From: an uncultured Gammaproteobacteria bacterium
Lineage (GTDB): Bacteria > Patescibacteriota > Microgenomatia > Levybacterales > JACOYD01
Length of the DNA stretch: 55,413 nt
Assembly: GCA_964445095.1 (NCBI GenBank)
Contig: CAYUJR010000001.1
Span: 48,283 to 103,695, forward strand
Direction of reading: 5' to 3'
In this document: piece after piece, positions 16,758 to 55,413 of the stretch
Layout of the letters: each line of letters begins with the position of its first letter
Numbering within the stretch: the stretch's first letter is position 1
Made by a program: the position numbers and the translations under genes
Notes under the pieces: model-generated
Database searches by the model: none
What the model saw: only the letters and a program-made list of their open reading frames with translations
What the model was told of the DNA's origin: nothing

Positions 16758-16761
16758 AAAA

Positions 16762-21800: not shown

Positions 21801-21809
21801 ATAATTGGT

Positions 21810-21815
21810 ATTATA
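21810..21815 (-). promoter_or_regulatory. Candidate -10 box inside the cluster (GT2 21045..21800)
   Basis: Minus strand TATAAT, then 9 nt to ATG 21800. A-rich upstream with no clear -35. Confidence 0.35.
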
Positions 21816-26494: not shown

Positions 26495-26497
26495 TGA

Positions 26498-36192: not shown

Positions 36193-36193
36193 T

Positions 36194-37810: not shown

Positions 37811-39023
37811 CCTTTGGCCAGAAATATGCTGTGATAAAAACTGTTGATAGATATCCCAAGTGACTATTATTTAAATATCGGGAAAAATACCAAAAGACGA
37901 AAAGGAAAACTCCATAAAAAAGAATTAATCGAGAAACCGTTGGTATTTTGCGAAGATATATCAGTAGCCATACTAATACTGGGGCGCCGATTCCTATTTG
38001 CCAAATAAGAAATGGGTAATAATTATGTATATCTTTAATAATGCCTAAACTAACAAGTATCATGCCAAAACCATACCCCGAGACCGGATAGCTATTAGGC
38101 GCATTTCCAGAAAGATAAAAGACAGTGCTATCTAGTAAGGCTTTCGTATCCCACAGCAAAAACGGAACAAAAATAGCCGACAAAACTATAATAGATAAAC
38201 CAAGCTGCTTAATGGTCCAAGCAATATTTCTATTTTTAAAATATAAAAAGGCTATATATAGGGGGAAGATTGGCCAAACCGATTGTTTGACAGCAAAAGC
38301 CATAGCCATGGGAATACCGGCTAATAAATATCGTTTTTTATGTAAAAACAGAAAAGCAAAGAAAAGAAAACTAAACATAAAGAAATCCGATCTGCCCTCC
38401 AGCATATAAAGTAATGTGGCGGGATTAAAGGCCAATAAAATTAAAAACAATAAACGCTGTCTCTCGTCTTTTACTAGCTTAGCTACCCCCATCAGTAGCG
38501 CCAGGAATAAAAAGAGCAAGGGCATTCGCGCGTCAAAAAAACCAAAAATAGGAATACTAAGAAAATAAAAAGGTAAAGCAAATAGGATGTATAATGGCGG
38601 TAATACAAAATGGTAAAGCGCCGGATTGACTTCTTTTTCTGAATAGTGCCACTGTTCTAGAAATGTGCCAAAATAAGTAGTGGCGTAAGGATTTTTACCA
38701 TCGAGCAAAAATCTCATGGCTATTTCTTGCTGCAACGGCATGTCATGAATTTGATAGGTCGGATGGGCTTGACGGCGAACTATCATGGCCGAGGCAAAAG
38801 CGCTCCCAATCACCAAAATTATTAGCGACCATAGCAAAATGTGTTTATACTTAAAATATTGTTTCTCGCTAATTTTGATGATATCTAGAAGTAAGTAAAT
38901 AAATAACCCCAGAAAAATTATCCCAAAAAGCCAGTAGGGGGTTTTGTCCGGACTTAAACTAACAGTCATAATAAAGGGAATAATTAAGGTAAATAACAAG
39001 ATTGAATCTAGTTTAATAGTCAT
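37800..39023 (-). CDS. Polytopic membrane protein, DUF2029/GT87-like GT-C candidate
   Basis: 407 aa. The loop IHDMPLQQEIAMRFLLDGKNPYATTY fits the D...G.NPY pattern. At least 9 hydrophobic helices. Confidence 0.4.
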   Translation of the reverse strand: MTIKLDSILLFTLIIPFIMTVSLSPDKTPYWLFGIIFLGLFIYLLLDIIKISEKQYFKYKHILLWSLIILVIGSAFASAMIVRRQAHPTYQIHDMPLQQEIAMRFLLDGKNPYATTYFGTFLEQWHYSEKEVNPALYHFVLPPLYILFALPFYFLSIPIFGFFDARMPLLFLFLALLMGVAKLVKDERQRLLFLILLAFNPATLLYMLEGRSDFFMFSFLFFAFLFLHKKRYLLAGIPMAMAFAVKQSVWPIFPLYIAFLYFKNRNIAWTIKQLGLSIIVLSAIFVPFLLWDTKALLDSTVFYLSGNAPNSYPVSGYGFGMILVSLGIIKDIHNYYPFLIWQIGIGAPVLVWLLIYLRKIPTVSRLILFYGVFLFVFWYFSRYLNNSHLGYLSTVFITAYFWPKDEE

Positions 39024-41392: not shown

Positions 41393-42405
41393 GTGATAGG
41401 TGTATACTTGTTAACAATCTCTAAATCTTCTAGATAATGGAATTTTTGTGGCCCTTTCTTTTTTGCCCACTCTATCATTTTTTTTACTCCGTCCTGTAGT
41501 GATACTGTAGTTTGATAACCCAGCACTCTCTTTGCTTTATCTACCGAACACCAAGCTTCCATTACTTCCATTGGGCGATGAGGGAGGTATTTTGGTTGTA
41601 AATTAGCGGGGACATTGCCATTTGGGAAAAATCTATCCAAAACAATTTTTGCTAACTCATTAATCGTGTACTCCTCTGTAGGACCAATATTAAAAATTTC
41701 TCCTTCTGCTTCTTTACCAAACGCTGCCTTAATAATGTAGGGGGTAAAATCATCAATATAAGAAAAGGCTCGCTTTTGCTTTCCCTCTCCATAGATATAA
41801 AAGTTTTTATTATTGAGAAGGCAATTAATGAAAATTGCCACTACGTTTCTATAGGGATCTGATAAATTCTGTCCTGGGCCGTAAACGTTGTGCGGACGGA
41901 TGATCACATATTTAAATCCGTGAACTTTACTCATGACTTCTGTAGCTCTTTCCATAGCGGCTTTGGAAATACCATATATATCATCAGGCAAATGAGGCAT
42001 CTCTTCTTTAAAAGGAGGTTTTTGAGAACCATAAACACTCATTGAGCTGGTCAAAATCATTTTTTTAAGACCGTTTTTGATGGCCGCTGTTAGTAAATAA
42101 ATATAGGCTAGAAAATTGCGCTCCGTACAACCAATGGGAGTAAACTGACTTCTTCCTTCTGTGGCATCTGCTGCTAGATGAAAAATGATTTCTGGTTTTA
42201 TTTCCGCAACATATTTTGCTACTTTTTCCCTTTCTCGCAGATCAAGCTGAGTAAAATGGCTTTTAGGATTAACATTATCAAGATATCCTCCCGACAAGTC
42301 ATCTACGCTAAAAACTTCGCTGTGGGCCATCTCAATAAGTTTATTAACTAGATGGCTACCCATGAATCCTGCCGCTCCGGTAACCAAAATTCTTTGTTTA
42401 AGCAT
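41371..42405 (-). CDS. NAD-dependent epimerase/dehydratase (extended SDR, UDP-sugar epimerase/4,6-dehydratase class)
   Basis: ILVTGAAGFMGSHLV and YGISKAAME (YxxxK). 344 aa. Confidence 0.85.
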   Translation of the reverse strand: MLKQRILVTGAAGFMGSHLVNKLIEMAHSEVFSVDDLSGGYLDNVNPKSHFTQLDLREREKVAKYVAEIKPEIIFHLAADATEGRSQFTPIGCTERNFLAYIYLLTAAIKNGLKKMILTSSMSVYGSQKPPFKEEMPHLPDDIYGISKAAMERATEVMSKVHGFKYVIIRPHNVYGPGQNLSDPYRNVVAIFINCLLNNKNFYIYGEGKQKRAFSYIDDFTPYIIKAAFGKEAEGEIFNIGPTEEYTINELAKIVLDRFFPNGNVPANLQPKYLPHRPMEVMEAWCSVDKAKRVLGYQTTVSLQDGVKKMIEWAKKKGPQKFHYLEDLEIVNKYTPITWVEKLL

Positions 42406-42459
42406 ATCTTCTTTATTATCTTAAAGTATTATGATAAATATTGCAACAGCAATATATTG

Positions 42460-42465
42460 TATAAT
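42460..42465 (+). promoter_or_regulatory. Candidate -10 box (plus-strand DPM1-like GT2)
   Basis: TATAAT 42460-42465, then 11 nt to ATG 42477. TTGCAA at 42441 is only 13 nt away, so the -35 is unclear. Confidence 0.45.
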
Positions 42466-42476
42466 AGTTTCAATTT

Positions 42477-43187
42477 ATGTTAAATCAGAAGAAAATTTCT
42501 TTGGTTTTTCCTGCTTTTAATGAAGCCGGTAATATCACCCAAGCTATTGATAATTTTAAAGCTCTAAAACTTATCGATGAGATTATTGTTGTTGATAATA
42601 ATTCAACTGATAGGACTGCTGAGATCGCAAAAACTAAAGGGGTAAAAATCATTAAAGAGGTACGTCAGGGATATGGTTTTGCCCTAATACGTGGTCTTAA
42701 ACAAGCAACGGGTGATTATATTGTCCTTACAGAACCCGATGGAACATTTATGGCAAAGGACTTACTGCGACTTTTAAAATACTCCAGCAGTTACGATATG
42801 GTTACGGGAACTCGGACAAATCCTCAATATTTTACCCGAGATGCCAATATGGGATATTTCCTGCGATTTGGAAATATTTTTGTTGCTAAACTGATACAAA
42901 TTCTTTATAATACCTCTTCGTTATCAGATTGCGGTTGTACCTTCCGAATCATCAAAAAATCATTAATTACCAAATTACTTCCTAAATTTACCGTTGGAGG
43001 GCAACACTTTTTAGCAGAACTGGTTGTACTTACTGCACTTACTGGCGGCAGTATTTATGAAATACCAGTGCGTTATAAAAAAAGAGTGGGTAGATCAAAA
43101 ATAACCGGCTCGCTTAAAACTTCAATTTCCGTAGGACTTCATATGATAGGGACATTAATCAAGTATAAATTTAATTTAAAAATCTAA
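42477..43187 (+). CDS. DPM1-like GT2, predicted polyprenyl-phosphate sugar synthase (only plus-strand gene in the cluster)
   Basis: ISLVFPAFNEAGNI, VVDNNSTDRTAEIAK, TEPDGTF and FLAELVVLTALTGGSIYEIPVRYKKRVGRSKI, the DPM1-type C-terminal motif. Confidence 0.8.
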   Translation: MLNQKKISLVFPAFNEAGNITQAIDNFKALKLIDEIIVVDNNSTDRTAEIAKTKGVKIIKEVRQGYGFALIRGLKQATGDYIVLTEPDGTFMAKDLLRLLKYSSSYDMVTGTRTNPQYFTRDANMGYFLRFGNIFVAKLIQILYNTSSLSDCGCTFRIIKKSLITKLLPKFTVGGQHFLAELVVLTALTGGSIYEIPVRYKKRVGRSKITGSLKTSISVGLHMIGTLIKYKFNLKI

Positions 43188-43917
43188 ATTTAATCAGCGT
43201 CCAAAGAGCAATCACGCCATCCCTAATAGTATTTAGTTTTTTACCTTCAGCATATCCTCTGGGGTTGGTGCTGATAGGAACTTCCATAATTTTATATCCC
43301 TTTTTTAGTAATTTGGCAGTAATTTCAGGCTCAAAGTCAAAACTTTTTGCCCGAAGGGTAATGCCGGCGAGGGCACTTTTGGGAAAAAGCTTGTAACCGG
43401 TCTCCATGTCAGTCAACCATTGACCGTAAAGAAGACTTGTCAATAGACTCAATAATCTGTTGCCAAAATAATGTAACAAGAAGCGAAATGTTTTTTCATC
43501 TCGACTAAGATCTGGCCATCTTCTTAACCTAGTGCCATAAATTACTTGAGTCTGGCCGTCAAGAATTGGCCGAATTAACTTTTCTATATCGCTAGGGTGA
43601 TATTCCAGATCGGCGTCCTGAATAATAATATACTCTCCAGACGCATTATTAATGCCGGTTCTGACCGCAGCTCCCTTCCCCTGATTATTTTTATGCTTAA
43701 CGCTTTTAAGATTTGAGATTTGAGATTTTCCGCCAGAGGCGGATCCGCCTTTGGAGGAGATATTTGATATTACCGACGCGGTAGCATCGGTCGATCCATC
43801 ATCAACTACAATTATTTCTATAGTAATCTTTGCTATTTTGAGACTAGCTATAGCCCGCAAAACTTGCCCGATAGTTTTTTCCTCGTTATACACTGGAATA
43901 ACAATAGATAATTTCAT
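43171..43917 (-). CDS. DPM1-like GT2, predicted polyprenyl-phosphate sugar synthase, with low-complexity insert
   Basis: LSIVIPVYNEEKTI, VVDDGSTDAT, NNQGKGAAVRTG, IQDADLEY and FEPEITAKLLKKGYKIMEVPIS. The insert ISNISSKGGSASGGKSQISNLKS lies between the DGSTD and GKG motifs. Confidence 0.8.
   Translation of the reverse strand: MKLSIVIPVYNEEKTIGQVLRAIASLKIAKITIEIIVVDDGSTDATASVISNISSKGGSASGGKSQISNLKSVKHKNNQGKGAAVRTGINNASGEYIIIQDADLEYHPSDIEKLIRPILDGQTQVIYGTRLRRWPDLSRDEKTFRFLLHYFGNRLLSLLTSLLYGQWLTDMETGYKLFPKSALAGITLRAKSFDFEPEITAKLLKKGYKIMEVPISTNPRGYAEGKKLNTIRDGVIALWTLIKFRFLN
43704..43771. repeat. Composite: ATTTGAG-type heptamers, GC-rich palindrome, ATTTGAT heptamer
   Basis: ttttaag atttgag atttgag attt (43704-43728). 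ccgccagaggcggatccgcc, with the perfect 14-nt palindrome aggcggatccgcct at 43737-43750. atttgat att (43762-43771). Confidence 0.8.
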
Positions 43918-44828
43918 GATAATACTTCGTTATCAGATTTTATAAACAATTTTCGTACCCTTAGGCCTTCTTTAATAATAGCAGGTAATCTAATCAGAGC
44001 TAGAAAAAATCCTATTAAAAAATAAAGATCGCCCCGCATAAAAGCTCTTACAACATGATATGGCAACCACAAAAGATGCCATAACCGCTTATTAAGATCA
44101 GTTATATTCTTCCAGACAAATATAAACTGATTTCGATAGGCGATAATTTTGATTTTGAAATCCGGTTGATAATGTTTAATGGCACCATATGCATGCTCAT
44201 GGACAACAACTGCTTTTGGTTCAAAGAAAATTTTATGTCCCGATTTCAACGCTCGATAAGAAAGGTCTATGTCTTCCCAATAAAATGGGTTATAAAGAGA
44301 ATCAAAACCGCCCAGCTTCTCCCAGGTTTTTTTTCTAAAGGCACCTGATCCTCCAGAAACCCACAACGTATCTGTCTTATCAACCTCACCTCTTCTGTGG
44401 ATAAGGAAACCCCGCTGAAATTTACCAATTCCCCGACCTCTCAATACAATTTTTCTACCCTCAATGCTTTTGTCAAGACAACCCACGGCAAAAATATTGC
44501 TATCGTCAAAGTGGGAAATCAGCGGGTTTAAAAAATCTTTTTGGGGAGCCACATCCGTATTAAGTAAAACAACAATTTCTCCCTTTGCTTCTTCTACTCC
44601 CCTATTAATCGTCGAGGAAAAACCTAAGTTTTTCTCGTTACGAATAATTTTTAATTTAGGGTATGTATTTTTGATATATTCTACCGACCCATCCTGCGAG
44701 GCATCATCTACAATGATTATTTCAGCTATACTGTCTTTATATGCCGTAGTTGCGTCTAGAACTTTTGATAAATTTTTTCTTAGAAGTTCTTGACCATTGT
44801 AATTTGGAATAATAATACTTATATTCAT
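43914..44828 (-). CDS. Glycosyltransferase family 2
   Basis: ISIIIPNYNGQELL, VDDASQDGS, LLNTDV and YWEDIDLSYR. Confidence 0.8.
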   Translation of the reverse strand: MNISIIIPNYNGQELLRKNLSKVLDATTAYKDSIAEIIIVDDASQDGSVEYIKNTYPKLKIIRNEKNLGFSSTINRGVEEAKGEIVVLLNTDVAPQKDFLNPLISHFDDSNIFAVGCLDKSIEGRKIVLRGRGIGKFQRGFLIHRRGEVDKTDTLWVSGGSGAFRKKTWEKLGGFDSLYNPFYWEDIDLSYRALKSGHKIFFEPKAVVVHEHAYGAIKHYQPDFKIKIIAYRNQFIFVWKNITDLNKRLWHLLWLPYHVVRAFMRGDLYFLIGFFLALIRLPAIIKEGLRVRKLFIKSDNEVLS

Positions 44829-47071
44829 AATAATGTTGAGTAAAATATTACCGTATGCCTACCTTTTGGTACAACGACCCCTCTAAAATTATAGTCTGTT
44901 CTATAAATTTCGGTGGCGGCTCCATCAATTGTTGCTTGCCAGGTGGGATAAAAACTATCAGTTAAGACCAGAAATCCCTCGCTCCCATTTTTTGTCTCTA
45001 TAATTACCATGCTTTCACTATAAGTAGCAATCTCCGCTTCGCATTTTATACACTTCCAGGGTGTACTAGATAGGACACCTCGATAATTCTCGACAACGGC
45101 AGTCTTTCTTGGGTTAAAATTCTGCTCAAAAAGCTTCCTTATTGCCTCATTCTTACTTGCTACAGAATGTATTTCTTCAACAAAAAATGCTCGCGGTAAT
45201 ATCTTCTCGTTCTCATAAACTCTAGTCTCCCCTTCTTGGAAAACTTTTACTAGCTTGGGTGATTGTAAATCAGCAAGACTTAATACATATTTTACCCCCA
45301 GCAAATCAATTATTTTTGATTCGTAATTTTTGGGCGTAATGATTCTATTAAAACCAAAGGGAGAACTGATATTGGGTTCTCCCCGTTCTGATGCGGCAAT
45401 AAGTTCTCCGTAACGTTTTAGATATAAAGGATCGTAACCATCAACACTTTGCAACCGATACATCACCGAAAAGTTGGGCGGCAAAATTCTGTCGTCTGTT
45501 GTCATAATCCGAAAAATTCCCTGCTGCTTTTGTAAAAAGTTCAGCACTTCTGTTTGGGGAAAAAGATACTCCCGATTTGTAAAGGGCAGGAACTTCCAGC
45601 CAAAACGAATCAAATCAAAAGTAACCACTCCCGCCATAATGATGTATATTATTAAAGTAAATACTCCTTTTTTTAGGCGGGATAAGACGAGAAATATAAC
45701 TATCGATATGGCAAATAGACTTGTTGGCAGAATGAGATTATTTTTGGCTACTGAAATATCATCTTTAAAAGCAAATAGCCAAAGCACCGCCAGAATAAGT
45801 CCCACAATAATAACTGGATAGAAAATTTGCTTTTTTCGACGCATAAAATAGTCAAATCCCAGAGCGGCCAAAATAGCTAGTAAAAAATCTGCTAAAAAAA
45901 TTAGTCTGGTTGGTTGAGCTGTTGAAAGAAAAGGGATATTTAAAATATAAGGAACTTTCGCAATGGGAGTAGGCAGAGCTAAAAGCAATACTACAAAGAG
46001 AAATAGTCCAAAAAACATGGTCTTTTTATCGCGTCTTGTGATAATAGCAAAAAGGGCAAGTATTAATGGCAGGATACCAATGTAACCGATAAACTCTCCA
46101 TAATTCCAAACTCCGAGGTAATTAAGCGTGGTGGGATTACCAAAAAAATCAGGGGCGACAAATTGGGCTAAATGCTGCCAGGGAATAAACCAACCATCAC
46201 GTTGCCAATCTACCTGATCAATACTTCTTGCGCTCTCTTCAATTAACTGCAATGTCGGCAGCCACTGAATTGCGGTAATTACCATAAATAATAAATAGCA
46301 AACAGCAAATAATCCTAGAGTTGTTTTGTCTTTACCGTACTGCCACCAACGAACTATTAAATAAACTAAGGATATTACAAAAACATAAAAAAAGGTCTGT
46401 AAATGTCCGGCAAAGAACGAGGAAATAAGTGAAAATAAGAAAACAAAAAACCAAACAGTATATTTTTTGCCAAGATTAAGAAAAATTTTATCTATCGACA
46501 GGAGTATTAAGGGTAACCATAATGCCGCGTGTAGTATCGTTCCCCACTCCATCCAGGCAACGAAAAACCCAGAAAAAGCAAATGCTATCGCCCCTAATAA
46601 ACCGGCTAATTTCTCTAAATTTAGACTTCTTAAATAAAAATACATTAATATACCTGCCAGTAGCGGTTGTGCAATAATTAAAAACGACCAGGCGACGAGA
46701 AAAGGTAATAAAAAGAATAAAATATTAAAAGGATAAAAAGCGGCCGTTTGAAAGTTAGCCAGTAAGGGTATTCCAGCCATATTATAGGAATTCCATAACG
46801 GGATTTCTCCTTTTTTAAGCATGTCTATCGCTAAATCCTTCCATGGCAGCAACTGCCGGACGGGATCGGTAATTAAGAAGTTTTTAAAAGGAATGCCAAC
46901 TGGGTATTGCTCGGCATAAAGGTCACGGAAAGGGTGATAGAGTGCGACAATAGTATCAGCCGGTATAGGTAAAAGGTTGGAAAATAGGACAGCCCGGAAA
47001 AATATTACAATAACTAAAAAAATAGTTAGTATTGGCCAGCTAGCTTTTAATAATGTCATCAATTTTTTCAT
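44825..47071 (-). CDS. YfhO-family GT-C membrane glycosyltransferase, paralog C of 4
   Basis: LYHPFRDL..KGEIPLWNSYNMAGIPL. C-terminal LTDSFYPTWQATIDGAATEIYRTDYNFRGVVVPKGRHTV. Confidence 0.8.
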   Translation of the reverse strand: MKKLMTLLKASWPILTIFLVIVIFFRAVLFSNLLPIPADTIVALYHPFRDLYAEQYPVGIPFKNFLITDPVRQLLPWKDLAIDMLKKGEIPLWNSYNMAGIPLLANFQTAAFYPFNILFFLLPFLVAWSFLIIAQPLLAGILMYFYLRSLNLEKLAGLLGAIAFAFSGFFVAWMEWGTILHAALWLPLILLSIDKIFLNLGKKYTVWFFVFLFSLISSFFAGHLQTFFYVFVISLVYLIVRWWQYGKDKTTLGLFAVCYLLFMVITAIQWLPTLQLIEESARSIDQVDWQRDGWFIPWQHLAQFVAPDFFGNPTTLNYLGVWNYGEFIGYIGILPLILALFAIITRRDKKTMFFGLFLFVVLLLALPTPIAKVPYILNIPFLSTAQPTRLIFLADFLLAILAALGFDYFMRRKKQIFYPVIIVGLILAVLWLFAFKDDISVAKNNLILPTSLFAISIVIFLVLSRLKKGVFTLIIYIIMAGVVTFDLIRFGWKFLPFTNREYLFPQTEVLNFLQKQQGIFRIMTTDDRILPPNFSVMYRLQSVDGYDPLYLKRYGELIAASERGEPNISSPFGFNRIITPKNYESKIIDLLGVKYVLSLADLQSPKLVKVFQEGETRVYENEKILPRAFFVEEIHSVASKNEAIRKLFEQNFNPRKTAVVENYRGVLSSTPWKCIKCEAEIATYSESMVIIETKNGSEGFLVLTDSFYPTWQATIDGAATEIYRTDYNFRGVVVPKGRHTVIFYSTLL

Positions 47072-48125
47072 AGAAATTTTCTTTACTATAGGTTAGCGAT
47101 GAAGTTTTAGCGCTTACGGACAATCTCTGCCAAACACGCTCCTCTCTAATAACCCATAGTGTTTTATCCTGTAGTTCAGGGAGGGTGTTCCAGAGTAATC
47201 CGTTCTTTTTATCTTTGACAATTTCTCTTTGACCTCCAGCGTTAATCACGATTGGCACAGTACCTGCTCCCATAGCTTCAACTGTAGAAATGCCAAAATG
47301 CTCCGCATATTCCGGATGTTTTATCAAATCTTCGCCGAAACCGCTGGCATGCCAATAAATTTTAGCCAGATTATAATAATTCCACAATTGTCTGTTATTC
47401 TGGTTAACTACAAACTGAATCGGTAATCCCTCTGTCCCTTTTTTCATCTCTTCTAACACATTTTTATCTTGGTCTTTTACGCTTACTGCTAACACCAGCT
47501 TCCAACCGCGTAATCCTTTTTTGAGCAGTTGCTTAAATGCTTTTACCAATACTGTTTGTTTTTTATAATCGCTAATAGGCCGACCCTCAATAGTAACATC
47601 TTTAACTCGCAGCCTGCCTACATTTAGGATAATATTTTCTTTTTGTATTTTCTTGGCATGTGTATCAACTGGAGGATATATTACCTTGGTATTTTTGCCA
47701 AACTTTTTGTCAACAAACGATTTAGTAAAATAGGAATTGCAAAATATATCAGCAATTCGAGTCAGTTTTAATTTTTCCCATAAAGAGAGTTTACTCAAAT
47801 GCTCCATTGGCTGCTGAAAATGGAGGAAAAGCTTGTGACATAGGAGAAAAGGAATACTCCCATCGCTTAAGATAATAATTATGTCAAATCTTCTGGATAT
47901 TAGAAGTCTTTTCCAGATGGTTACATCTTTAGAAAAAATGTTTTTGACAAATTTAACTCGAGATAGATCAATGGAAAAACGCTCTAGAAATTCTTTAATG
48001 TCTTTTTTACTATCCCAAAAAACACTCACTTCATGCTCTTTTGATAAGTACTCCGCTATAGACATCATGTATTTCTCGCCACCGCCTAAATCATCCATGT
48101 AGGGATTATAAATACCAATTTTCAT
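47040..48125 (-). CDS. Glycosyltransferase family 4 (GT-B)
   Basis: MKIGIYNPYMDDLGGGEKY start and EHFGISTVEAMGAGTVPIVINAGGQREIV motif. Confidence 0.8.
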   Translation of the reverse strand: MKIGIYNPYMDDLGGGEKYMMSIAEYLSKEHEVSVFWDSKKDIKEFLERFSIDLSRVKFVKNIFSKDVTIWKRLLISRRFDIIIILSDGSIPFLLCHKLFLHFQQPMEHLSKLSLWEKLKLTRIADIFCNSYFTKSFVDKKFGKNTKVIYPPVDTHAKKIQKENIILNVGRLRVKDVTIEGRPISDYKKQTVLVKAFKQLLKKGLRGWKLVLAVSVKDQDKNVLEEMKKGTEGLPIQFVVNQNNRQLWNYYNLAKIYWHASGFGEDLIKHPEYAEHFGISTVEAMGAGTVPIVINAGGQREIVKDKKNGLLWNTLPELQDKTLWVIREERVWQRLSVSAKTSSLTYSKENFYEKIDDIIKS

Positions 48126-50415
48126 AGATAAATTCTATCTGGCTTTCTCCGGCTGGAATAACAACTGCCCGAAAGGTGTAATCTGCTCTATAAATTTTAA
48201 CATCTTCTCCGCTTAATTTTGCTTTCCAACCGGGGTAAAAATTATCCGAGAGAAATAAAAATGCTGGACTGTCGGTCTTGACGGCAATAATAATTTTATT
48301 CGGGGTATATGAAATAATTTGGGCGCTTCCGCTGCCTTCTTTGCTTGGCGCAAAAAAAGGCTTATCTTCTACAATCAATGTCTTTCTAAAATCAAAGCTA
48401 TCGCTGTAAAATCTTTTGATTATTTCCCGATCGCTTTTTATCACCTCAAAATTATAAAAGAGTAAAGCTCTGGGTAATGCTAGATTATTTTTAAATAGCT
48501 GATGCTTGCTGTCTTGATAAGCCAATGTATATCTTTTTGGGTCCTGCCAAACCGGATAAGCCCAGCCGGCATTAGTATCGCTGATAGGATTAAAAATTAA
48601 AGAAACTCCTAATAGGTCTAACGCTCGGTCGGTAAATCTTCCCCGCCTATCAAGGTTTACCACCGACCGTTCTCCCTGTAAAAATTCTCCTGTACCCGCG
48701 CTTCTTATAAATTCGCCATAGCGGTTGACGTATAAAGGATCATAGCCTTCAATAATAGGAAAACCGTAATAAGAAGAAACCCCTGCTCCAATATTGCCAA
48801 AGATTCGCCCGCCCCCAATATTTTTTTTAATCGCCTCAATAACAGGAACCGGCGGATAAACTAATCCTTTTGGATCAAACGGCATCCATTTTTGGGCGAA
48901 GCGAAGGCTGTCGAAAGAAGCAACAAGTAACAGGTAACAAGTAATAAGTAATATAAATTTTTTATTAATTTTTAAAAGACCAACAAAAAATACTACGCCT
49001 ATAAATAATACTGTCGGCAAGACTAAATTTCTTTTTGCCACAATCAGCCATTCCTGTGGATATACTTTTCCAAAAAACAGCAGAAGCCAAATGGAAGCAA
49101 AAAAAACTGCCACCAAGGTAAATAATGCTATCATCTTTTTATTTTCCCTAACATCTCTAATTCCCCTAATTTCCCCAATGAGCCGGTCAAAACCAAATCC
49201 CGCCAGAACCGCCAGCGAAAAACTAAACAAAACAATAATTCTTGATTGAGCGCTTGTTGATAAAACAGGAATTTTTAAGGAGACTATAATATTAGAAATA
49301 TTAAGATTAATAGGAATATTATAAATATAAAAAACTGGGATGTATACAGCAAGAAGAAGTGATACTACTGCTAAAATTACAAAAAATGATATTTTCTTTA
49401 TCTGTATTCTCAAAATTGCATAAATGGCAAGCATTAATGGGATGATGCCGATAAACGACGCCCATTCGGCATAATGCCCAAACCAGTCATTTCGAGTAAC
49501 AGGATTACCAAAAAAATCCGGCGAAAAAACAGTAACAAGATATTGAAAAGGTATCGCCTCGCCTACTTGAAAAAGCTCACTGCGAACCGATTGACCATAA
49601 AGTCTTATCGATGGTAAGAGCTGTGGCAGTGAAAGAACTAAACCTAATAAAATAGCAACTAGCAATTGGTAATTAGCAATTAGTTTTTTAACCGATAGTG
49701 CATTAAAAAAAGTATAAGCAATAATTGCTACTAGAAAATATAAACCTATTTGAAAATGACCGGAGAAAAACGACAGAGGAATTGTCAGAGCAAGTAGTGC
49801 CAAAAAACGTATTTGTCTTTGCTGATAATATTTTTCAATAGCAAAAAGAGCAAGCGGCAAATATAAAATTGCAAAAGCCAATGTTCCATAAGCCATCCAT
49901 ACCACGATGAAGCCACAGAACATAAAACTAATACTACCAATCAGTAATCCCGTAGCGCTTATCTTAAGCGTTTTTAAAAACATCGACATGAAAATTCCTG
50001 CTAATAATGGTTGTAGAAGAATTAAAATGCTCCAGGCATCGATAAAGGGAAGTAAGGAAAAAAGAGCATTTCCAGGGGAAAGTACCGCCGATTGAAAATT
50101 GGCTAAATGAGGATTGCCGGAAAAACTATATGGGTTCCATAAGGGTATCTGACCGTTTTTCCACGTTTCGATAGTAAATTTCTTCCAGGGGTATATTTGG
50201 GTATGAACATCAGGCATGGCATTATTTTTGACCGGTCCCCAAAATTGTTCATAATGACTCCAGGGGGCAAAAAAATTTACCTGATAAGTCGAGGCATAGG
50301 GAACTTTTTCCTTAATAAAATAAGGACTGGCAAAAATAAACCAAAGCCCGAAGATAAAAATAATCGGCCAGAATCTTAATAAAAAGTTTTTAGTTTTAAG
50401 TTGTAGTTTTGACAT
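48106..50415 (-). CDS. YfhO-family GT-C membrane glycosyltransferase, paralog D of 4
   Basis: FFAPWSHY..IYPWKKF..NGQIPLWNPYSFSGNPH. C-terminal LSDNFYPGWKAKLSGEDVKIYRADYTFRAVVIPAGE. Start set to MSKLQLKTKN (ATG 50415). The track extension to 50502 would overlap the upstream GT2 by 107 nt. Confidence 0.8.
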   Translation of the reverse strand: MSKLQLKTKNFLLRFWPIIFIFGLWFIFASPYFIKEKVPYASTYQVNFFAPWSHYEQFWGPVKNNAMPDVHTQIYPWKKFTIETWKNGQIPLWNPYSFSGNPHLANFQSAVLSPGNALFSLLPFIDAWSILILLQPLLAGIFMSMFLKTLKISATGLLIGSISFMFCGFIVVWMAYGTLAFAILYLPLALFAIEKYYQQRQIRFLALLALTIPLSFFSGHFQIGLYFLVAIIAYTFFNALSVKKLIANYQLLVAILLGLVLSLPQLLPSIRLYGQSVRSELFQVGEAIPFQYLVTVFSPDFFGNPVTRNDWFGHYAEWASFIGIIPLMLAIYAILRIQIKKISFFVILAVVSLLLAVYIPVFYIYNIPINLNISNIIVSLKIPVLSTSAQSRIIVLFSFSLAVLAGFGFDRLIGEIRGIRDVRENKKMIALFTLVAVFFASIWLLLFFGKVYPQEWLIVAKRNLVLPTVLFIGVVFFVGLLKINKKFILLITCYLLLVASFDSLRFAQKWMPFDPKGLVYPPVPVIEAIKKNIGGGRIFGNIGAGVSSYYGFPIIEGYDPLYVNRYGEFIRSAGTGEFLQGERSVVNLDRRGRFTDRALDLLGVSLIFNPISDTNAGWAYPVWQDPKRYTLAYQDSKHQLFKNNLALPRALLFYNFEVIKSDREIIKRFYSDSFDFRKTLIVEDKPFFAPSKEGSGSAQIISYTPNKIIIAVKTDSPAFLFLSDNFYPGWKAKLSGEDVKIYRADYTFRAVVIPAGESQIEFIYENWYL
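48920..48954. repeat. Imperfect GTAACAA-type heptamer array in YfhO-like paralog D
   Basis: gcaacaa gtaacag gtaacaa gtaataa gtaatat. Encodes a TM segment, LLITCYLLLVA. Confidence 0.7.
49654..49688. repeat. Imperfect AGCAAYT-type heptamer array in YfhO-like paralog D
   Basis: agcaact agcaatt ggtaatt agcaatt agttttt. Encodes LIANYQLLVAI. Confidence 0.7.
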
Positions 50416-51175
50416 TTGAGTTTTGCGATTTGAGATTATTCTGTAACTCCCAAAGTCTGGCATAAGTAATAAACATACTAAAAGCTTGATATATACTCTC
50501 AATTAGTCCTACCGTCCCCGCCTTCCAACCGCTCTGTCTTATATACGAATCAAAAAATGCGGTAAGCATTACACGCGGAAACCGCCACCATGTCATTTGA
50601 GGATGTCCCGCTTTTAGCCGTAGCTCTGCCTCAATTTTAGACCACTCGATAGTTTTCTCAACCATTGAAGTAAAGTCTTTGTGCGTATAATGCAGTAGGA
50701 ATCCATCAAGCTCCCCTATTTTTCCATCAATAACCGGACTTTCGTGAAGCTGCCCTCGCCATTCTTTTAATGCATCTTTTCTAAAAAGCCGCTCTATTTT
50801 CTCAATATACGGCCACTCGTGCTTTCCGAAGTAGAAATTTTTCCTGCTAATCCTAAAAACAGCATAATTTTGATATTTGATATTTGATATTTGATATTTG
50901 ATATTGTCGCGAAGCGACGTTGTTATCCGTTCATCCGTATCCACATACAAAACCCATTCCCCTTTTGCCTCTTGTAATCCCTTATTTCTCAACTGGGCAA
51001 AACTGTCTGTATTAATAGTCAAGACTTTAGCCTTAAGATATTTAGCAACTTCTGCCGTCCTATCTGTCGACGAGTTATCAACTACAATTACCTCATCGGC
51101 AAAATCAACAGAGGTGATGGCATCAGCAATCTCACCCTCCGCATTTTTAGCAATAATAATAATTGACAGCTTCAT
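50396..51175 (-). CDS. Glycosyltransferase family 2 carrying a perfect heptanucleotide tract
   Basis: LSIIIIAKNAEGEI, VVDNSSTDRTAEVAK, VDTDE and RISRKNFYFGKHEWPY. Paralog of 21045..21800 and 52724..53632. Confidence 0.8.
   Translation of the reverse strand: MKLSIIIIAKNAEGEIADAITSVDFADEVIVVDNSSTDRTAEVAKYLKAKVLTINTDSFAQLRNKGLQEAKGEWVLYVDTDERITTSLRDNIKYQISNIKYQNYAVFRISRKNFYFGKHEWPYIEKIERLFRKDALKEWRGQLHESPVIDGKIGELDGFLLHYTHKDFTSMVEKTIEWSKIEAELRLKAGHPQMTWWRFPRVMLTAFFDSYIRQSGWKAGTVGLIESIYQAFSMFITYARLWELQNNLKSQNSNVKTTT
50414..50437. repeat. Imperfect ATTTGAG-family heptamers at the GT2 stop / YfhO start overlap
   Basis: atttgag ttttgcg atttgag att. Covers the C-terminal tail of 50396..51175 and lies immediately upstream of, and overlaps, the YfhO-like D start codon (ATG 50415). 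Confidence 0.6.
50869..50906. repeat. Perfect heptanucleotide tandem repeat (TTTGATA) about 5.4 copies, in-frame in a GT2 gene
   Basis: Five exact units at 50869-50903 plus a partial ttg. The coding-sense unit ATATCAA encodes NIKYQISNIKYQ. Confidence 0.95.
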
Positions 51176-52080
51176 AACTCGTAGCTTCCTCTACCAAATT
51201 TTCCCAGGTAAAAATCCAGCGCTCCTCTTTTTTGCCATAATCTACCATTGATTAATAACCCGAAACTTTCTCGCAAAAGTGCTAGTTTTGACCGAAGCGG
51301 TGCATATCTTATGCCAAAAAGCAACCGGTTTCTGGTAATGTAATAATCTTGAAGTGAGGAACCAGAACCGCCTGCTGAACCGGCGTTTTTGTGCCAGAGC
51401 ACTGCTCTTGGATTAAATACTATTTTAAAACCGGCTTTTTTTGCTCGAAGAGAAAAATCACTGTCTTCATAATACAAAAAATATTTATTGTCTAACATCC
51501 CAATTCTTTCAAAAACGCTTCTTTTAATCATCATGCAACACCCACTGGCGAAATCCGTTTCTTCTTCTTTTTCATATTGACCACCGTCAACATCGTCAAC
51601 GCCCCGGTGTCTACCAACGACATTTTCCCAATCAACTATTCCTCCCGCATACCAAATAACTTTCCCCAAATCTTCCTTTTTATATCTGTCTTTATGAAAT
51701 TCAAAACTAGGGGCAAAGTAAATTTTGGGGGCCACCATTCCGATCTTTTTGTCCGATTCTGCAACTTTAACAAGTTCGTTAACCAAATTTTTATCAACAA
51801 CAGTATCATTATTCAGAATAATAACGTACTCTGCCCCATTTCTTAGTGCATAATTAATGCCAACATTATTCCCTCCCGCAAATCCTAAATTCTCTTTATT
51901 TCTAATAATCTCTACCCTTTCCCCTTTACCCTCTACCCTAAACTCTTCTTTTGATCCGTTATCAACAACAATAGTTTGTAGTTTGTAGTTTGTAGTTTGT
52001 AGTTGACTAAGGCTCTCTAGGCACTCCAGTGTATCTCTAGTCCCATTCCAATGGAGGATGATTATAAAAACAGTTTTCAT
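51172..52080 (-). CDS. Glycosyltransferase family 2 (WbbL/rhamnosyltransferase-like class) carrying a perfect heptanucleotide tract
   Basis: VFIIILHWNGTRDTLECLESL, VVDNGS, NLGFAGGNNVG, ILNNDT and FLYYEDSDFSLR. Confidence 0.85.
   Translation of the reverse strand: MKTVFIIILHWNGTRDTLECLESLSQLQTTNYKLQTIVVDNGSKEEFRVEGKGERVEIIRNKENLGFAGGNNVGINYALRNGAEYVIILNNDTVVDKNLVNELVKVAESDKKIGMVAPKIYFAPSFEFHKDRYKKEDLGKVIWYAGGIVDWENVVGRHRGVDDVDGGQYEKEEETDFASGCCMMIKRSVFERIGMLDNKYFLYYEDSDFSLRAKKAGFKIVFNPRAVLWHKNAGSAGGSGSSLQDYYITRNRLLFGIRYAPLRSKLALLRESFGLLINGRLWQKRGALDFYLGKFGRGSYEL
51972..52004. repeat. Perfect heptanucleotide tandem repeat (TAGTTTG) about 4.7 copies, in-frame in a GT2 gene
   Basis: Four exact units at 51972-51999 plus a partial tagtt. 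The coding-sense unit CAAACTA encodes QLQTTNYKLQT. Confidence 0.95.
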
Positions 52081-52727
52081 TCCGTAGTAATTTTTACTCT
52101 GGCTTGAATAAGTTGAGTGCGGGCTCCTAATTGAGTTTTCATTTGCACCCGATAAAGCTTGTTGCCACTACCTAATCCCAAGGCAGTAGAAATCAATAGC
52201 TTTGGCTCTCCTCCTTCTATAGAAAGCTCCGAGGGCCATACCATATTTTTATCGCTCACATTATATAGTCTGACATAAGTTGTCTGATTACCGGTGGGAG
52301 TATAAAGCGAGGCTTCAAAAACTGCACTTTTTATCCGACCGTATTTAGTATTATCTATGTAGGTCTCAACTCCTGGAACATCTGTCCAATCCTTGGCTGT
52401 ACTCTCGCCTGAACCTAGCGATATCAAAAATTCCCGAGCCGGCCCAGCTACTTGACTGCCAATCGCACTAGTATTTTGCGCAGGAACAATATTAATAGAT
52501 GCTGTAGCTATTTTTACTATCTCTTCTACTTCCTGCCGAGTAATACCTATAGCATCAGCAGAAGCTGTCGCTACCGACTGCGATCCTCGTTCCACAAAAA
52601 CAACTTGCTTTTCCGGTAGATTTTTTTCCTGAACAAAAAATTTATAATCTAATAATATTAGATTACCTAAAGCGAGCAGTAAAATTATTCCCGCTAAAGC
52701 CAGTAGAACCCTTCGTAGTTTAGTCAT
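52077..52727 (-). CDS. Membrane-anchored extracytoplasmic protein of unknown function
   Basis: Start set to MTKLRRVLLALAGIILLLALGNLILL (ATGA overlap with the upstream stop at 52724). It has a single N-terminal TM anchor followed by a beta-rich soluble domain. No recognisable motif. Confidence 0.5.
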   Translation of the reverse strand: MTKLRRVLLALAGIILLLALGNLILLDYKFFVQEKNLPEKQVVFVERGSQSVATASADAIGITRQEVEEIVKIATASINIVPAQNTSAIGSQVAGPAREFLISLGSGESTAKDWTDVPGVETYIDNTKYGRIKSAVFEASLYTPTGNQTTYVRLYNVSDKNMVWPSELSIEGGEPKLLISTALGLGSGNKLYRVQMKTQLGARTQLIQARVKITTE

Positions 52728-53632
52728 AAAAACTTCCTTTGCAGTTTTAATAATAATTTTTCCCAAATATTTTTACTGTCATTTAAGCGTGCTGTGATTA
52801 GCCAAAAATTTAACTCTCCTCTTAGCTTTTTTGACTCATTCTGGAGCGAATTGAGGGAAATTTTGTCCGTCGGCGCAAAATTTTTCTTCTCCCAAACAGT
52901 CACAAAAACAATCAAATGATAAAAGGCCATTAGTAGGCTTAAAACTAGTCCATGAAGTCCATCTTTATAACCTTGTTGGGCAAAAAAACGATTAATGAAC
53001 TCTTTGGCCGGCATCCTAATGCTATCCAAGTAGTTGAATTGATAATTATTTCTTAGCAGGTTTTGAGCTTCGTTGGGAGTATAAATATAGGTAAGTTTAT
53101 TTAAAAATTGACTGACATTATCGTAGTTTAAGTGCTCGAGATGGTTAGTCAATTTTTCTGTGAGGCCGGCAACTTCTACCATTTCATGAACATGCCGTTC
53201 GGGAAACTTACCCTTGCCTTTCTTGAATAACCTTAATTGATAGTCCGGATACCAACCGGTGTGACGCATCCATTTGCCAAAAATGATATTTTTTCTGGGA
53301 ATCCAGTAGCCACTGATGGCTGATGGCTGATGGCTGATGGCTAAGAGTATTTCTTTTTTAAGCTCTGGTGTAACTCGTTCATCCGCATCCAAACTAAGAA
53401 TCCAATCTCCCGTGGCTTTAGTAAATCCGAAGTTCTTATTGACATTAAGCATTGGGTTGTTGGACCGGGCATAGATTCTTGAGGTGTATTCTTTGGCAAT
53501 TTGGGCGGTTTTATCGGTTGAGGAGTTATCAATAAATATTATCTCATCCGCCAGCTGGCAGATTGACCCTAGACAATCGCGAATCTTGTCTTCCTCATTA
53601 AAAGCAGAGATAACTACCGACAGTCCTATCAC
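52724..53632 (-). CDS. Glycosyltransferase family 2 carrying a perfect heptanucleotide tract
   Basis: GTG start. LSVVISAFNEEDKI, FIDNSSTDKTAQIAK, SLDADE and GYWIPRKNIIFGKWMRHTGWYPDY. Confidence 0.8.
   Translation of the reverse strand: MIGLSVVISAFNEEDKIRDCLGSICQLADEIIFIDNSSTDKTAQIAKEYTSRIYARSNNPMLNVNKNFGFTKATGDWILSLDADERVTPELKKEILLAISHQPSAISGYWIPRKNIIFGKWMRHTGWYPDYQLRLFKKGKGKFPERHVHEMVEVAGLTEKLTNHLEHLNYDNVSQFLNKLTYIYTPNEAQNLLRNNYQFNYLDSIRMPAKEFINRFFAQQGYKDGLHGLVLSLLMAFYHLIVFVTVWEKKNFAPTDKISLNSLQNESKKLRGELNFWLITARLNDSKNIWEKLLLKLQRKFL
53313..53342. repeat. Perfect heptanucleotide tandem repeat (CTGATGG) about 4.3 copies, in-frame in a GT2 gene
   Basis: Four exact units at 53313-53340 plus a partial ct. 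The coding-sense unit CCATCAG encodes ISHQPSAIS. Confidence 0.95.
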
Positions 53633-53639
53633 ATCTACA

Positions 53640-53667
53640 ATTGTATCAATTTGAGGGATTTTTTCAA
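53640..53667 (-). promoter_or_regulatory. Sigma70-type promoter with extended -10 (GT2 52724..53632)
   Basis: Minus strand: TTGAAA (53667-53662), 16-nt spacer, TGaTACAAT (-10 at 53645-53640), then 7 nt to GTG 53632. Confidence 0.6.
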
Positions 53668-54353
53668 AATGCGGGATTTAAACTCTTAAGTGGGGGAAGA
53701 AGTTTTCTAGCAATCAGAAAGGATAATATATGTTTAACCACAAAATAGGATGCAGAGATACCAAGAGCAAAAAGCAACCGTTCCTGTATGACAATTGGGA
53801 TAAGATTATTCCAGACCGAGGCCGGCAGATTAAACGCCCAAATCCAGGCGGCTCCCCCGACTGCGTGGGCGGTAAATGTGGCACCCAAGCTTTGGATAAG
53901 AAGCTTATCTCGTTTAAGATACGCGAGAAGTGGAATGGTCCAAAAGAGAGAGTAATACCAAACCGTTCTGCCTATGGGATGAGCAACAAATGCAATTATA
54001 GCAATAAGCGGTACGAGCAAAATCCACCGATTTTTTCCTCCCCAATTTTTCCTACTTCCCTTACCACTCACTACCCCGAAATACCACACCGCAAAAAGCA
54101 TGGGGAAAAGACGGATAATCGCGCCTGTTGTAAAAGGGACTTGTTTAACAGTGTAATTGACAACCTCAACCACCAATACCGAAATAACTCCAAACAACGG
54201 TCCCAAGAAAGTACCGGCTATGGGGCCGAAGAAGTCAAACAGAGTAAAAGAAACATTGCTACCCGCGAGTCTTGTAAATGGCACTTGAAAAGTAATAAAA
54301 CCAATAACCGAGAAGAGAACAAAAAAAATCAACCGAGCATTTTTCTTTATCAT
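53664..54353 (-). CDS. Integral membrane protein of unknown function (about 6 TM)
   Basis: 229 aa and hydrophobic throughout. Preceded by a TTGACA-17-TAATAT promoter. No recognisable catalytic motif. The antisense ORF 53730..54377 is judged spurious. Confidence 0.55.
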   Translation of the reverse strand: MIKKNARLIFFVLFSVIGFITFQVPFTRLAGSNVSFTLFDFFGPIAGTFLGPLFGVISVLVVEVVNYTVKQVPFTTGAIIRLFPMLFAVWYFGVVSGKGSRKNWGGKNRWILLVPLIAIIAFVAHPIGRTVWYYSLFWTIPLLAYLKRDKLLIQSLGATFTAHAVGGAAWIWAFNLPASVWNNLIPIVIQERLLFALGISASYFVVKHILSFLIARKLLPPLKSLNPAF

Positions 54354-54362
54354 AACTTCTTG

Positions 54363-54391
54363 ATATTAGTACAGTAATCTAACCTTGTCAA
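54363..54391 (-). promoter_or_regulatory. Sigma70-type promoter, leaderless geometry (membrane protein 53664..54353)
   Basis: Minus strand: TTGACA (54391-54386, overlapping the upstream stop), 17-nt spacer, TAATAT (54368-54363), then 9 nt to ATG 54353. Confidence 0.65.
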
Positions 54392-54918
54392 GAATTTTTT
54401 AACACCTTATATTTGACAAGTAATGTCCCATTACTATTAAGCTTTTTAATGCTTAATAGTTTTAAACTGATATTCAAAGGGCTTTCAGAAACCAGAGGTT
54501 TACCGCTGCCAAAAATTCTTGGTTCAATAGTCAACCATAATTGATTGACAAGCCCTTTTTCAAGAAATGTCCCAGCAAGAATTGCTCCGCCTATAAACAA
54601 CATCTTTTTAAATCCCTTTCTTGTCAATCGCTCTAATAACTGCCTTGGGGTCTCATTTACAAACTCAAGCTGACCGGCTACAAAAATCTTGCTATACTTT
54701 TTAGGGTTTTTAGTAACTACAACTCGCAGTTTCCCTTTTTGAGGAGCGGGTTTGCGAGCCTCATAAGTATGTCGTCCCATCACTATTAGATTATTCTGCT
54801 CTATAAGCGAAAAGAAATATTGTGAATCTTCTGGCGAGGTCCACTCGTAAATATTATTCGAATCCCATTTTGTAGTTTTCCCATCTATTGATGATGCCAT
54901 CACTAAAATTATCCTCAT
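54388..54918 (-). CDS. RibD C-terminal domain / dihydrofolate-reductase-like reductase
   Basis: MRIILVMASSIDGKTT.., VMGRHTYE and LFIGGAILAGTFLEKGLVNQLWLTIEPRIFGSG, typical of RibD_C. Confidence 0.75.
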   Translation of the reverse strand: MRIILVMASSIDGKTTKWDSNNIYEWTSPEDSQYFFSLIEQNNLIVMGRHTYEARKPAPQKGKLRVVVTKNPKKYSKIFVAGQLEFVNETPRQLLERLTRKGFKKMLFIGGAILAGTFLEKGLVNQLWLTIEPRIFGSGKPLVSESPLNISLKLLSIKKLNSNGTLLVKYKVLKNS

Positions 54919-54925
54919 AGGTAGT

Positions 54926-55413
54926 TTAATTTTTAAGATGGGTCAAAATCGTTTTTATATCGGAGGACATTTCTTGCTTGGCAATAAGAAATAACAGGCT
55001 GAAGTAAATTATTCCGCTTCCCAAAATTGCCAGCAGGAGAGTTGGGATATTAGCTACAAAAAGCGGAGCGCTAATGTATAAAACTGCCGCCATTAGAAAT
55101 GAGGAGATGAGAGGCTTAATGATTATTTGCAATATTTTAAATTCTATATGTTGTCTTACTATATAAATTACCACTATAACTGATAAAGCAATCGTGGCCG
55201 AAGCAATAGCCACGCCAATAAAGCCAAAAAACTTAATAAAAACAAATGTTAATATCCAAGTACTTACAGTCCAAAACACCATTAGCCTAAGCGTTATCTT
55301 AATCTTTCCCAAGGCATTAAGGATGTTTGTCAGAGGTGTGGAAACAGATGAAAAAATTGCATTGATGCCAAAAAAAGTCAGCGATAAAAGAGCCGGCTCC
55401 CATTTATTGTATT
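54926..55413 (-). CDS. MOP/Wzx-type flippase, C-terminal part (N-terminus off the window)
   Basis: The frame stays open upstream of the track start to the window edge (..YNKWEPALLSLTFFGINAIFSSVSTPLTNILNALGKIKITLRLMVFW..). Hydrophobic helices resemble Polysacc_synt_C. Confidence 0.6.
   Translation of the reverse strand, partial: YNKWEPALLSLTFFGINAIFSSVSTPLTNILNALGKIKITLRLMVFWTVSTWILTFVFIKFFGFIGVAIASATIALSVIVVIYIVRQHIEFKILQIIIKPLISSFLMAAVLYISAPLFVANIPTLLLAILGSGIIYFSLLFLIAKQEMSSDIKTILTHLKN

Follow-up and report, generated by a model that had tools for sequence, protein, structure and literature searches.

The closest described system is neuO of Escherichia coli K1, a phase-variable capsule O-acetyltransferase gene on the CUS-3 prophage that carries an (AAGACTC)n heptanucleotide repeat in its 5′ coding region (PMC13001214). 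Repeat numbers in neuO range from 3 to 53, the gene is OFF in 65.6% of 64 complete genomes, and about 7% of the cells in culture carry variants with one unit more or one unit fewer (PMC13001214). Haemophilus influenzae also carries heptanucleotide tracts (PMC2651432), and a further report describes an excess of heptamers among bacterial simple sequence repeats (SSRs) and suggests a polymerase-footprint explanation (PMC4692102, citing Mrazek et al. 2007); Lin and Kussell (2012) contains nothing on heptamers. The heptamer excess has been noted since 2007 and is unexplained, and the described cases are mostly intergenic. Here, a perfect heptanucleotide tract within a family-2 glycosyltransferase (GT2) gene is analyzed. 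It lies in a 55,413-nt stretch (the window) of contig CAYUJR010000001.1 (assembly GCA_964445095.1), from an uncultured bacterium of the Levybacterales lineage of Patescibacteriota, part of the candidate phyla radiation (CPR). A first-pass annotation, made from the letters of the sequence, had proposed the tract as a slipped-strand on/off switch. The tract is one of a class of short, perfect, in-frame period-7 arrays, usually of 4-5 units (~31 nt), found dispersed among genes in Levybacteria and other members of Patescibacteria. With somewhat better than even confidence, it is read here as a slippage-prone coding heptamer microsatellite that is kept in frame by selection and encodes a surface helix, and not as a dedicated switch.

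The tract, its host gene and the nearby catalytic-domain motif are located as follows, in coordinates of the window.

50869..50905, minus strand: the tract, a perfect heptanucleotide array, (AATATCA)x5.29 in the coding sense, residues 91-103
50396..51175, minus strand: the host gene, a family-2 glycosyltransferase of 259 amino acids (aa) with a Pfam PF00535 match
50933..50941, minus strand: DxD motif of the GT-A fold, D79-T80-D81, 9 residues upstream of the array

The sequence itself, Tandem Repeats Finder (TRF) and an exact-repeat scan agreed on a perfect period-7 array of 37 nt, with 5.29 TTTGATA units on the plus strand. In the coding sense, this is (AATATCA)5 followed by AA, and it encodes GT2 residues 91-103, NIKYQISNIKYQN. 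The perfect tract reported in the first-pass annotation thus stands, with its end moved from 50906 to 50905 (the G at 50906 breaks the period) and its copy number from 5.4 to 5.29. No Markov-1 shuffle of the window matched its score at any period. As that annotation had also held, the tract is read in frame and the unit, AATATCA on the coding strand, is free of stop codons in all three frames; the truncations it had given for unit changes were reproduced exactly by simulation. Gain of one unit or loss of two ends the protein at ...KLCCF* (109 or 102 aa, versus 259), loss of one or gain of two ends it at ...ILRK* (124 or 131 aa), and gain or loss of three keeps the frame. The locus therefore has one property of a contingency locus, namely an intragenic 7-nt unit (codons 91-103) whose gain or loss shifts the frame.

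The host open reading frame (ORF) matches PF00535 (Glycos_transf_2) with E=3.7e-16 and 59.9 bits, above the curated cut-off of 23.3; together with the DxD motif and a Rossmann-like α/β N-terminal domain, this places the protein among the GT2 enzymes of GT-A fold. The ORF overlaps both of its neighbors, namely the stop of the GT2 gene upstream (51172) at its start and the start region of the next gene, a YfhO-like one, at its 3′ end. The structural context was taken from an AlphaFold model built from 24 orthologs and from an alignment in which D79, D81 and E82 are invariant columns. The model (overall predicted local distance difference test score, pLDDT, 89.4) has alternating strands and helices and places the tract at the end of helix 86-97 and in the turn before strand 104-115 (pLDDT 83-87); this helix comes after the DxD strands 74-79 and 82-84. 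The tract segment is thus predicted to be a canonical GT-A element on the protein surface, and it contains no insertion when compared with the Pfam profile or with orthologs. No secondary structure was predicted for the tract (minimum free energy, MFE, 0), and hairpin-driven slippage was rejected, the array being unstructured. One further feature adjoins it.

50905..50919, no strand assigned: G+C-rich inverted repeat GTCGC-GAA-GCGAC, abutting the 5′ (coding-sense) edge of the array

This repeat is partly imposed by the codons T-S-L-R-D and is partly kept in orthologs as codons for S/E-L-R/A-D/R. It was scored as terminator-like on the plus strand by a simple scan, and it might be a replication pause site.

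The window as a whole is rich in such arrays: a low threshold gave 13 period-7 arrays where 0.8 were expected, and a stricter threshold gave 9 for an expectation of 0.13, corresponding to 11- to 16-fold and ~70-fold enrichment. Both TRF and separate scans of our own found period 7 alone to be enriched, save its multiple 14. The comparison set comprised 80 ortholog-bearing loci, 1.26 Mb in all, from a retrieval that favored intact genes; L-numbers below denote retrieved loci or contigs. Among perfect tandem repeats of at least 3 copies in these loci, 36 of 50 had period 7, mostly with 4-5 copies. The 36 arrays represent 24 different canonical units and are intragenic, and so do not constitute an intergenic heptamer family of the STRR, GGGNATC or TAACTGA type. 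When the window and the Levybacteria loci were combined, all 39 perfect arrays lay on the coding strand, and all were read through in frame apart from five, four of which lay at the ends of genes and the fifth at the end of a contig. Unrelated low-GC, CPR-like metagenome contigs (0.54 Mb) yielded 32 further heptamer arrays with at least 25 different units, and 7 was the most frequent repeat period there as well. Heptameric SSRs are therefore over-represented in the window, in the related loci and in unrelated CPR-like contigs. Their positions within genes recur: arrays are found in certain transmembrane helices of the membrane proteins and where the GT2 C-terminus meets the YfhO-like gene, and also next to motifs, namely after DxD in two paralogous GT2 families, after GSTD and before the IVVDNG strand.

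Homologs of the GT2 are abundant in Patescibacteria (under source names such as Levybacteria and Roizmanbacteria, among others), with the nearest 77% identical. An exact-protein look-up of the window GT2 returned no record, its 90% cluster has one member, and an all-versus-all megablast of the window and L001-L202 gave no near-identical pairs spanning an array. The segment from DxDER to RKNFY is of near-constant length in orthologs, mostly 81 nt. The window, L082 (76% aa identity), L017 and L019 (both 62%) have a perfect AATATCA array at the tract site, and L013, L001 and L007 have one with one or two mismatches; this graded progression from perfect to variant reads as a decay series among orthologs. 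Other orthologs have other units at the site (AGTATCA/AGTATGA, CAATTTC, AAATTCA and AGACCAA), and most have unrelated sequence. Orthologs sharing the unit (about 61-75% aa identity) carry 4.7-5.3 units, with constant unit count and constant segment length. L081, the closest syntenic relative (77%), carries a perfect (AAATCCG)x4.6 array at the tract codons and encodes the peptide KSEIRNPKSEI there, and five window/L081 ortholog pairs have arrays at matching codons with differing units or degrees of perfection. Comparison of the window with the same-unit orthologs gave codon identity at shared residues of 41-45% outside the array and of 10-12 out of 10-12 residues inside it (P 5e-5 to 3.5e-4). 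Because every base of the unit serves as codon position 1, 2 and 3 in turn, no unit-wide change would be silent. To judge from these alignments, the array is kept uniform as DNA, and one unit can be swapped for another across its whole length, a pattern of concerted evolution that would imply ongoing slippage or misaligned conversion.

Three of these loci have additional features. At the equivalent site of L025, AGTATCA and AGTATGA alternate, so that the repeat is of higher order with an effective period of 14 and may have grown by duplication of two units at a time. L004 (P0023-like) has an AATATCA array split by a 24-nt non-repeat insertion (SIRQAQDK), with remnants on both sides. The GT2 and YfhO-like genes are adjacent and overlapping in the window, unlike in L081, where a 903-aa MmeI-like type IIL restriction-modification gene (10744..13455; N6_Mtase, MmeI_Mtase, Eco57I and TaqI_C domains) lies between them.

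The same unit also occurs in unrelated genes. A metagenome scan for (AATATCA)3 returned at least 120 stretches, and the matches listed, to which the following figures refer, contain 124 arrays. Fifty-six are internal and in frame in long ORFs, one has a possible frame break, and none is antisense to a long ORF, as expected from the TGA in TTTGATA. The contigs are mostly of 32-45% G+C. Copy number, taken together with the related-locus arrays, spans 3-5.7 units with a mode of 4, and the modal AATATCA array is (AAATATC)4AAA, 31 nt, whose ends fall in an A-run. The 50 hosts scanned include ten glycan enzymes (4 GT2, 2 GT1, 2 Wzy and 2 PMT_2) and also TsaD, GAPDH, NifS/IscS, MurB, Mur ligases, RecR, NrdG, MiaA, GatB, PurH, UppP, MnmA and TrmD, core housekeeping proteins among them; the GAPDH host belongs to Pacebacteria, another CPR class. 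Relative to solved homologs, the array segment adds 9 aa in GAPDH and 5 aa in RecR and removes 1 aa in MurB, and its net length in the GT2 relative to orthologs is 0 aa. The arrays thus sit in surface segments that vary and do not represent insertions of one uniform kind. Dozens of unrelated proteins contain the peptide NIKYQIS, whether in a loop, in a strand or at a terminus.

Four other accounts of the arrays were rejected or set aside. A model in which a seed plus three units inserts 7 aa is ruled out by the observed differences of +9, +5, -1 and 0 aa. The array flanks contain no target or conserved motif, and this, with array ends that fall in an A-run, rules out a mobile mini-element with a target site. 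In-frame selfish insertion elements, of which the Rickettsia palindromic elements are an example, were set aside given the lack of a conserved flank or secondary structure and the same variable lengths. Lastly, the TCAA core common to many units was considered as a recognition motif; it is more plausibly a product of stop-codon avoidance, since A-rich coding DNA would escape stops where T is followed by C, T, AT or AC.

Evidence for slippage of this unit comes from the Pacebacteria GAPDH. The 90% cluster of the array-bearing GAPDH includes a 254-aa fragment encoded on a 75-kb contig, k141_718224 of ENA ERZ27247683 (L206). The GAPDH genes of L206 (2741..3765) and L112 (6448..7479), which come from independent assemblies, are identical at 1,022 aligned nt except for one lost AATATCA unit: the array has 3.29 copies in L206, at 2903..2925, and 4.29 in L112, and the gene of L206 is split in two. 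Single-unit slippage of the AATATCA heptamer thus appears to occur in nature. In L207 (911..1880), a 35-nt deletion between AAATT microhomologies takes out the entire patch. In an array-free ortholog (92% protein and 93.4% nt identity), a 33-nt segment replaces the 60-nt patch between flanks of 100% identity, and in a 73% ortholog the same patch is present, its array decayed. Near-identical contigs accordingly hold three alleles of the patch (4.29 units; 3.29 units, frameshifted; and the 35-nt deletion, frameshifted), and GAPDH is broken in 2 of 5 contigs. L112 and L203, at 93.4% nt identity overall, differ in clusters, and on each side of the patch they share a stretch of over 100 nt at 100% identity; this pattern suggests a recombination mosaic in this population. 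Taken as a whole, the arrays appear to slip and to decay, and to be exchanged by recombination.

These observations can be assembled into a candidate mechanism. Slippage during replication or misaligned conversion within arrays, strongly and intrinsically biased toward 7 nt, would give rise to arrays and homogenize them. Selection acts as a filter, the survivors being, as seen in the arrays described above, those with a stop-free coding-strand unit, a frame-keeping length and a structurally permissive segment. Because 7 is not a multiple of 3, successive units are read in each of the three frames, and three units yield a 7-residue periodic peptide, modeled here as the helix end after DxD and the following turn. 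Homogenization together with protein-level selection could then freeze the sequence of the array. Slippage by one or two units would, as in the simulations, give a truncated and presumably dead GT2, and might also disturb a translationally coupled downstream gene. Such null alleles would be rare and mostly purged, and any resulting glycan heterogeneity would be a by-product and not an evolved switch.

The gene neighborhood bears on how far this explanation can be pressed. Nearly the whole window is taken up by ~45 co-directional ORFs (4217..55312, minus strand), tightly packed or overlapping, and the annotated members are mainly GT2, GT1, PMT/PMT_2 and YfhO-type membrane glycosyltransferases. 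For a bacterium with a small genome, a glycosylation island of this size is unusual. The other period-7 arrays within it are listed below.

50408..50437, minus strand: imperfect AATCTCA-like array in the C-terminal tail of the tract's GT2 (NLKSQNSNVK), spanning the junction with the YfhO-like ORF
51972..52004, minus strand: perfect array (AACTACA)x4.71 in the adjacent GT2 (51172..52080), residues 26-37 (QLQTTNYKLQT)
51915..51939, minus strand: imperfect period-7 array in the same GT2 (51172..52080), residues 48-56
53313..53342, minus strand: perfect array (AGCCATC)x4.29 in a paralogous GT2 (52724..53632), residues 97-107
48918..48953, minus strand: imperfect TTACTTG/TTACCTG array in a transmembrane segment of the YfhO-like protein
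49653..49683, minus strand: weak period-7 array in the YfhO-like protein, residues 274-284
46284..46309, minus strand: weak period-7 array in a second YfhO-like protein
43705..43728, minus strand: period-7 array (AAATCTC) in a GT2 (43171..43917), residues 64-71 (KSQISNLK)
35009..35039, minus strand: degenerate array of the tract's unit (TATCAAA) in a PMT_2-family glycosyltransferase, encoding SNIKHQISNIQ
30852..30878, minus strand: imperfect period-7 array in a transmembrane segment of a PMT-family membrane protein

The three perfect arrays of the window lie in three GT2 genes within 2.5 kb, and the one at 53313..53342 occupies a post-DxD site that is the structural equivalent of the tract site. 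Some of the imperfect arrays have better counterparts at the same codons in L081, where the ortholog of the 48918..48953 array is more perfect and the 46284..46309 site holds a perfect (TTTGTTA)x4.4. The GT2/YfhO junction array is perfect in the orthologs L009, L010, L032 and L039. Arrays at gene junctions recur (50408..50437 in the window, L009 10735..10761, L010 10750..10781, L032 10739..10771, L039 10742..10796 and L108 755..785), at two types of junction: between the GT2 C-terminal tail and the YfhO-like start, and at the GalE tail. In several of them, a change of one or two units would fuse the two ORFs into one. The L039 array, with 7.86 copies, is the longest in the Levybacteria loci.

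Several points weigh against the explanation preferred here. Some 13 arrays are crowded into one ~50-kb glycosylation island of the window, and glycan enzymes account for 10 of the 50 array hosts, versus 5-7 of 100 background ORFs drawn, weighted by length, from array-bearing contigs (odds ratio 3.3-4.8, p = 0.006-0.02); this modest enrichment fits either relaxed constraint or some adaptive use. The frame-neutral periods 6 and 9, for their part, show no enrichment. The mutability of the tract itself is judged by comparison, with the nearest relative 77% identical, and the lone natural allele lacking one unit might conceivably stem from an error of the library or the assembly, or represent a minority allele. 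Neither the strict preference for 7 nt nor the 4-unit mode of array length is accounted for, and replacement of whole units without out-of-frame intermediates, which would be lethal in essential genes, is a supposition.

Among the rival explanations, an evolved contingency (phase-variation) locus survives best: gain and loss of units would toggle the GT2, and the tract would be kept for that purpose and, together with the arrays in neighboring glycosyltransferases, would diversify a surface glycan, for example against phages or hosts. In its favor are the in-frame unit that is not a multiple of three, so that a change of one or two units truncates the enzyme, the three perfect arrays in three GT2 genes and ~13 in the island, the persistence and re-homogenization of arrays at orthologous sites, the natural AATATCA slippage in GAPDH and the 3- to 5-fold enrichment of glycan enzymes; neuO also provides a precedent for a coding heptanucleotide switch in a capsule-modifying enzyme (PMC13001214). 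The balance of ON and OFF alleles argues otherwise. A frame screen of 213 perfect heptamer arrays for breaks that could be repaired by unit gain or loss flagged 8. Four are gene-junction arrays (L009, L010, L032 and L108), three are ambiguous and lie on contigs of 37-53% GC (L119, L156 and L188), and the one genuine break, in the L206 GAPDH, was retrieved because it is truncated and so falls outside the OFF fraction. Among internal arrays not chosen for breakage, the OFF fraction is 0-3 of ~124 (95% upper bound 2.4-6.1%), versus 65.6% for neuO (PMC13001214); ON and OFF alleles are thus not both common. The GT2 was intact in 80 of 80 orthologs, within a retrieval that favored intact genes.

The form and distribution of the arrays also speak against a contingency locus. 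At 5.29 units, in a class that spans 3-5.7 with a mode of 4 (versus 3-53 in neuO), the tract is neither long nor broadly variable, and five units are few for high mutability. It lies mid-gene in a helix predicted to be canonical and not in a dispensable 5′ leader. Unit count is equal in all same-unit orthologs. The class is not confined to or strongly enriched in surface genes, 80% of hosts being other genes, and AATATCA is also found in frame in single-copy housekeeping genes, where an OFF state makes no sense. A dedicated contingency locus is therefore not supported, and the architecture of surface-glycan contingency genes that the first-pass annotation had recognized here does not hold up against a clade-wide class with housekeeping hosts and so few OFF arrays. 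That annotation had named, along with a single invariant length in deep coverage, a copy number shared exactly by all related genomes as grounds for giving up the switch; the constant count in the same-unit orthologs, none of which is a close relative, comes near to this. Overall, an evolved switch is considered unlikely.

Somewhat less likely again is a broader proposal, in which a lineage-wide, actively renewed CPR system maintains arrays at conserved codons, driven by a 7-nt-specific property of replication or repair, and toggles genes at a low rate. If this were true, the system would generate surface-peptide variation and, in the ~50-kb island, would confer population-level glycan heterogeneity on organisms with very little transcriptional regulation; the tract would be one functioning part of a contingency strategy at genome scale, in which collateral arrays in core genes are tolerated as well.

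That the periodic peptide itself is what is selected, with a heptad-like amphipathic helix (NIKYQIS)n serving GT2 function or oligomerization, is improbable. The segment is predicted to be helical, NIKYQISNIKY is common to orthologs at about 61-75% identity, and a study cited in PMC13001214 reported that the heptad extension of NeuO alters activity. Selection on the protein, however, leaves the 100% codon identity unexplained. Moreover, the closest relative encodes KSEIRNPKSEI from another perfect unit, the site is unrelated in sequence in most orthologs, and NIKYQIS occurs across dozens of unrelated proteins in varied structural contexts. More improbable still is a cis element in DNA or RNA, either a site bound by a protein or RNA that senses a 7-nt period or an antisense promoter that becomes stronger or weaker with copy number. 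The array is conserved at the DNA level, and the intergenic heptamer repeats of Beggiatoaceae, Xanthomonas and Nostoc have been proposed to be regulatory (PMC4679880, PMC4692102). The antisense strand has promoter-like matches (TTGATA-17-GATATT, 9 of 12, in two registers), but these are weak and no commoner than in shuffles (3 versus 1.7, SD 1.4), and the antisense promoter was rejected on these grounds. With units that differ even at one site, the arrays share no common recognition sequence; they are essentially all intragenic and on the coding strand, constrained just by stop avoidance, and the tract has no secondary structure. Finally, although tandem repeats are prone to misassembly and the contig is metagenome-derived, an assembly or sequencing artefact is scarcely credible for a 37-nt tract that is far shorter than typical reads and final k-mers, keeps the frame of a conserved gene, recurs in orthologs and belongs to a phenomenon shared by over 100 independent assemblies produced with various pipelines, apparently including, going by record names, complete chromosomes and long-read assemblies (L022, L042 and L074).

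On its own, the tract looks like an ordinary candidate switch; the class of arrays to which it belongs is of greater interest. In that class, the heptamer excess lies inside coding sequence, is read in three frames, holds conserved codon positions in several genes and turns over en bloc. In the literature searched, no paper was found on heptamer arrays in CPR bacteria, nor was the intragenic form at conserved sites with unit turnover. The class raises questions about the mutability of short arrays, about homogeneity reached without frameshifted intermediates, and about the cost or use of such arrays in a minimal genome. There are also practical consequences, in that arrays can split gene calls in CPR metagenome-assembled genomes and create false “hypervariable” patches in protein alignments.

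Comparison with known systems separates the features that are shared from those that are not. Like neuO, the locus has a 7-nt unit within the coding sequence of a surface-polysaccharide enzyme that is full length only in frame, with three units giving a 7-residue periodic peptide and change by single-unit strand slippage, as seen here in GAPDH. In neuO, however, the repeat forms a 5′ extension, whereas the tract has five units, lies mid-gene and encodes part of a canonical helix; unit count is equal in same-unit orthologs, and the array class is ~95-100% ON. The tetranucleotide and other SSR contingency loci of H. influenzae and Neisseria (lic, lgt, hmw and others) resemble it in having an intragenic non-triplet repeat that is perfect, conserved in position and subject to slippage. 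Those contingency SSRs also sit in promoters, and in lipopolysaccharide or adhesin genes; the tracts are long (often 10-40 units), variable between strains, often OFF and concentrated in surface or host-interaction genes, none of which applies here. The published heptamer repeats of Beggiatoaceae, Xanthomonas and Nostoc show the same specific excess of period 7 over neighboring periods, and in Xanthomonas and Nostoc a modal preference for about four units, as here. Slippage tied to the polymerase footprint has been put forward as the cause. Unlike those families, the present arrays are intragenic, in frame and on the coding strand, with many A-rich, stop-free units. In PNAS papers of the 1980s, Ohno reportedly put forward coding sequences made of oligomeric repeats as a theoretical model of gene origin. 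The arrays share with that model a non-triplet unit, a peptide period equal to the unit length and three open frames; unlike the model, they are a feature of a living lineage.

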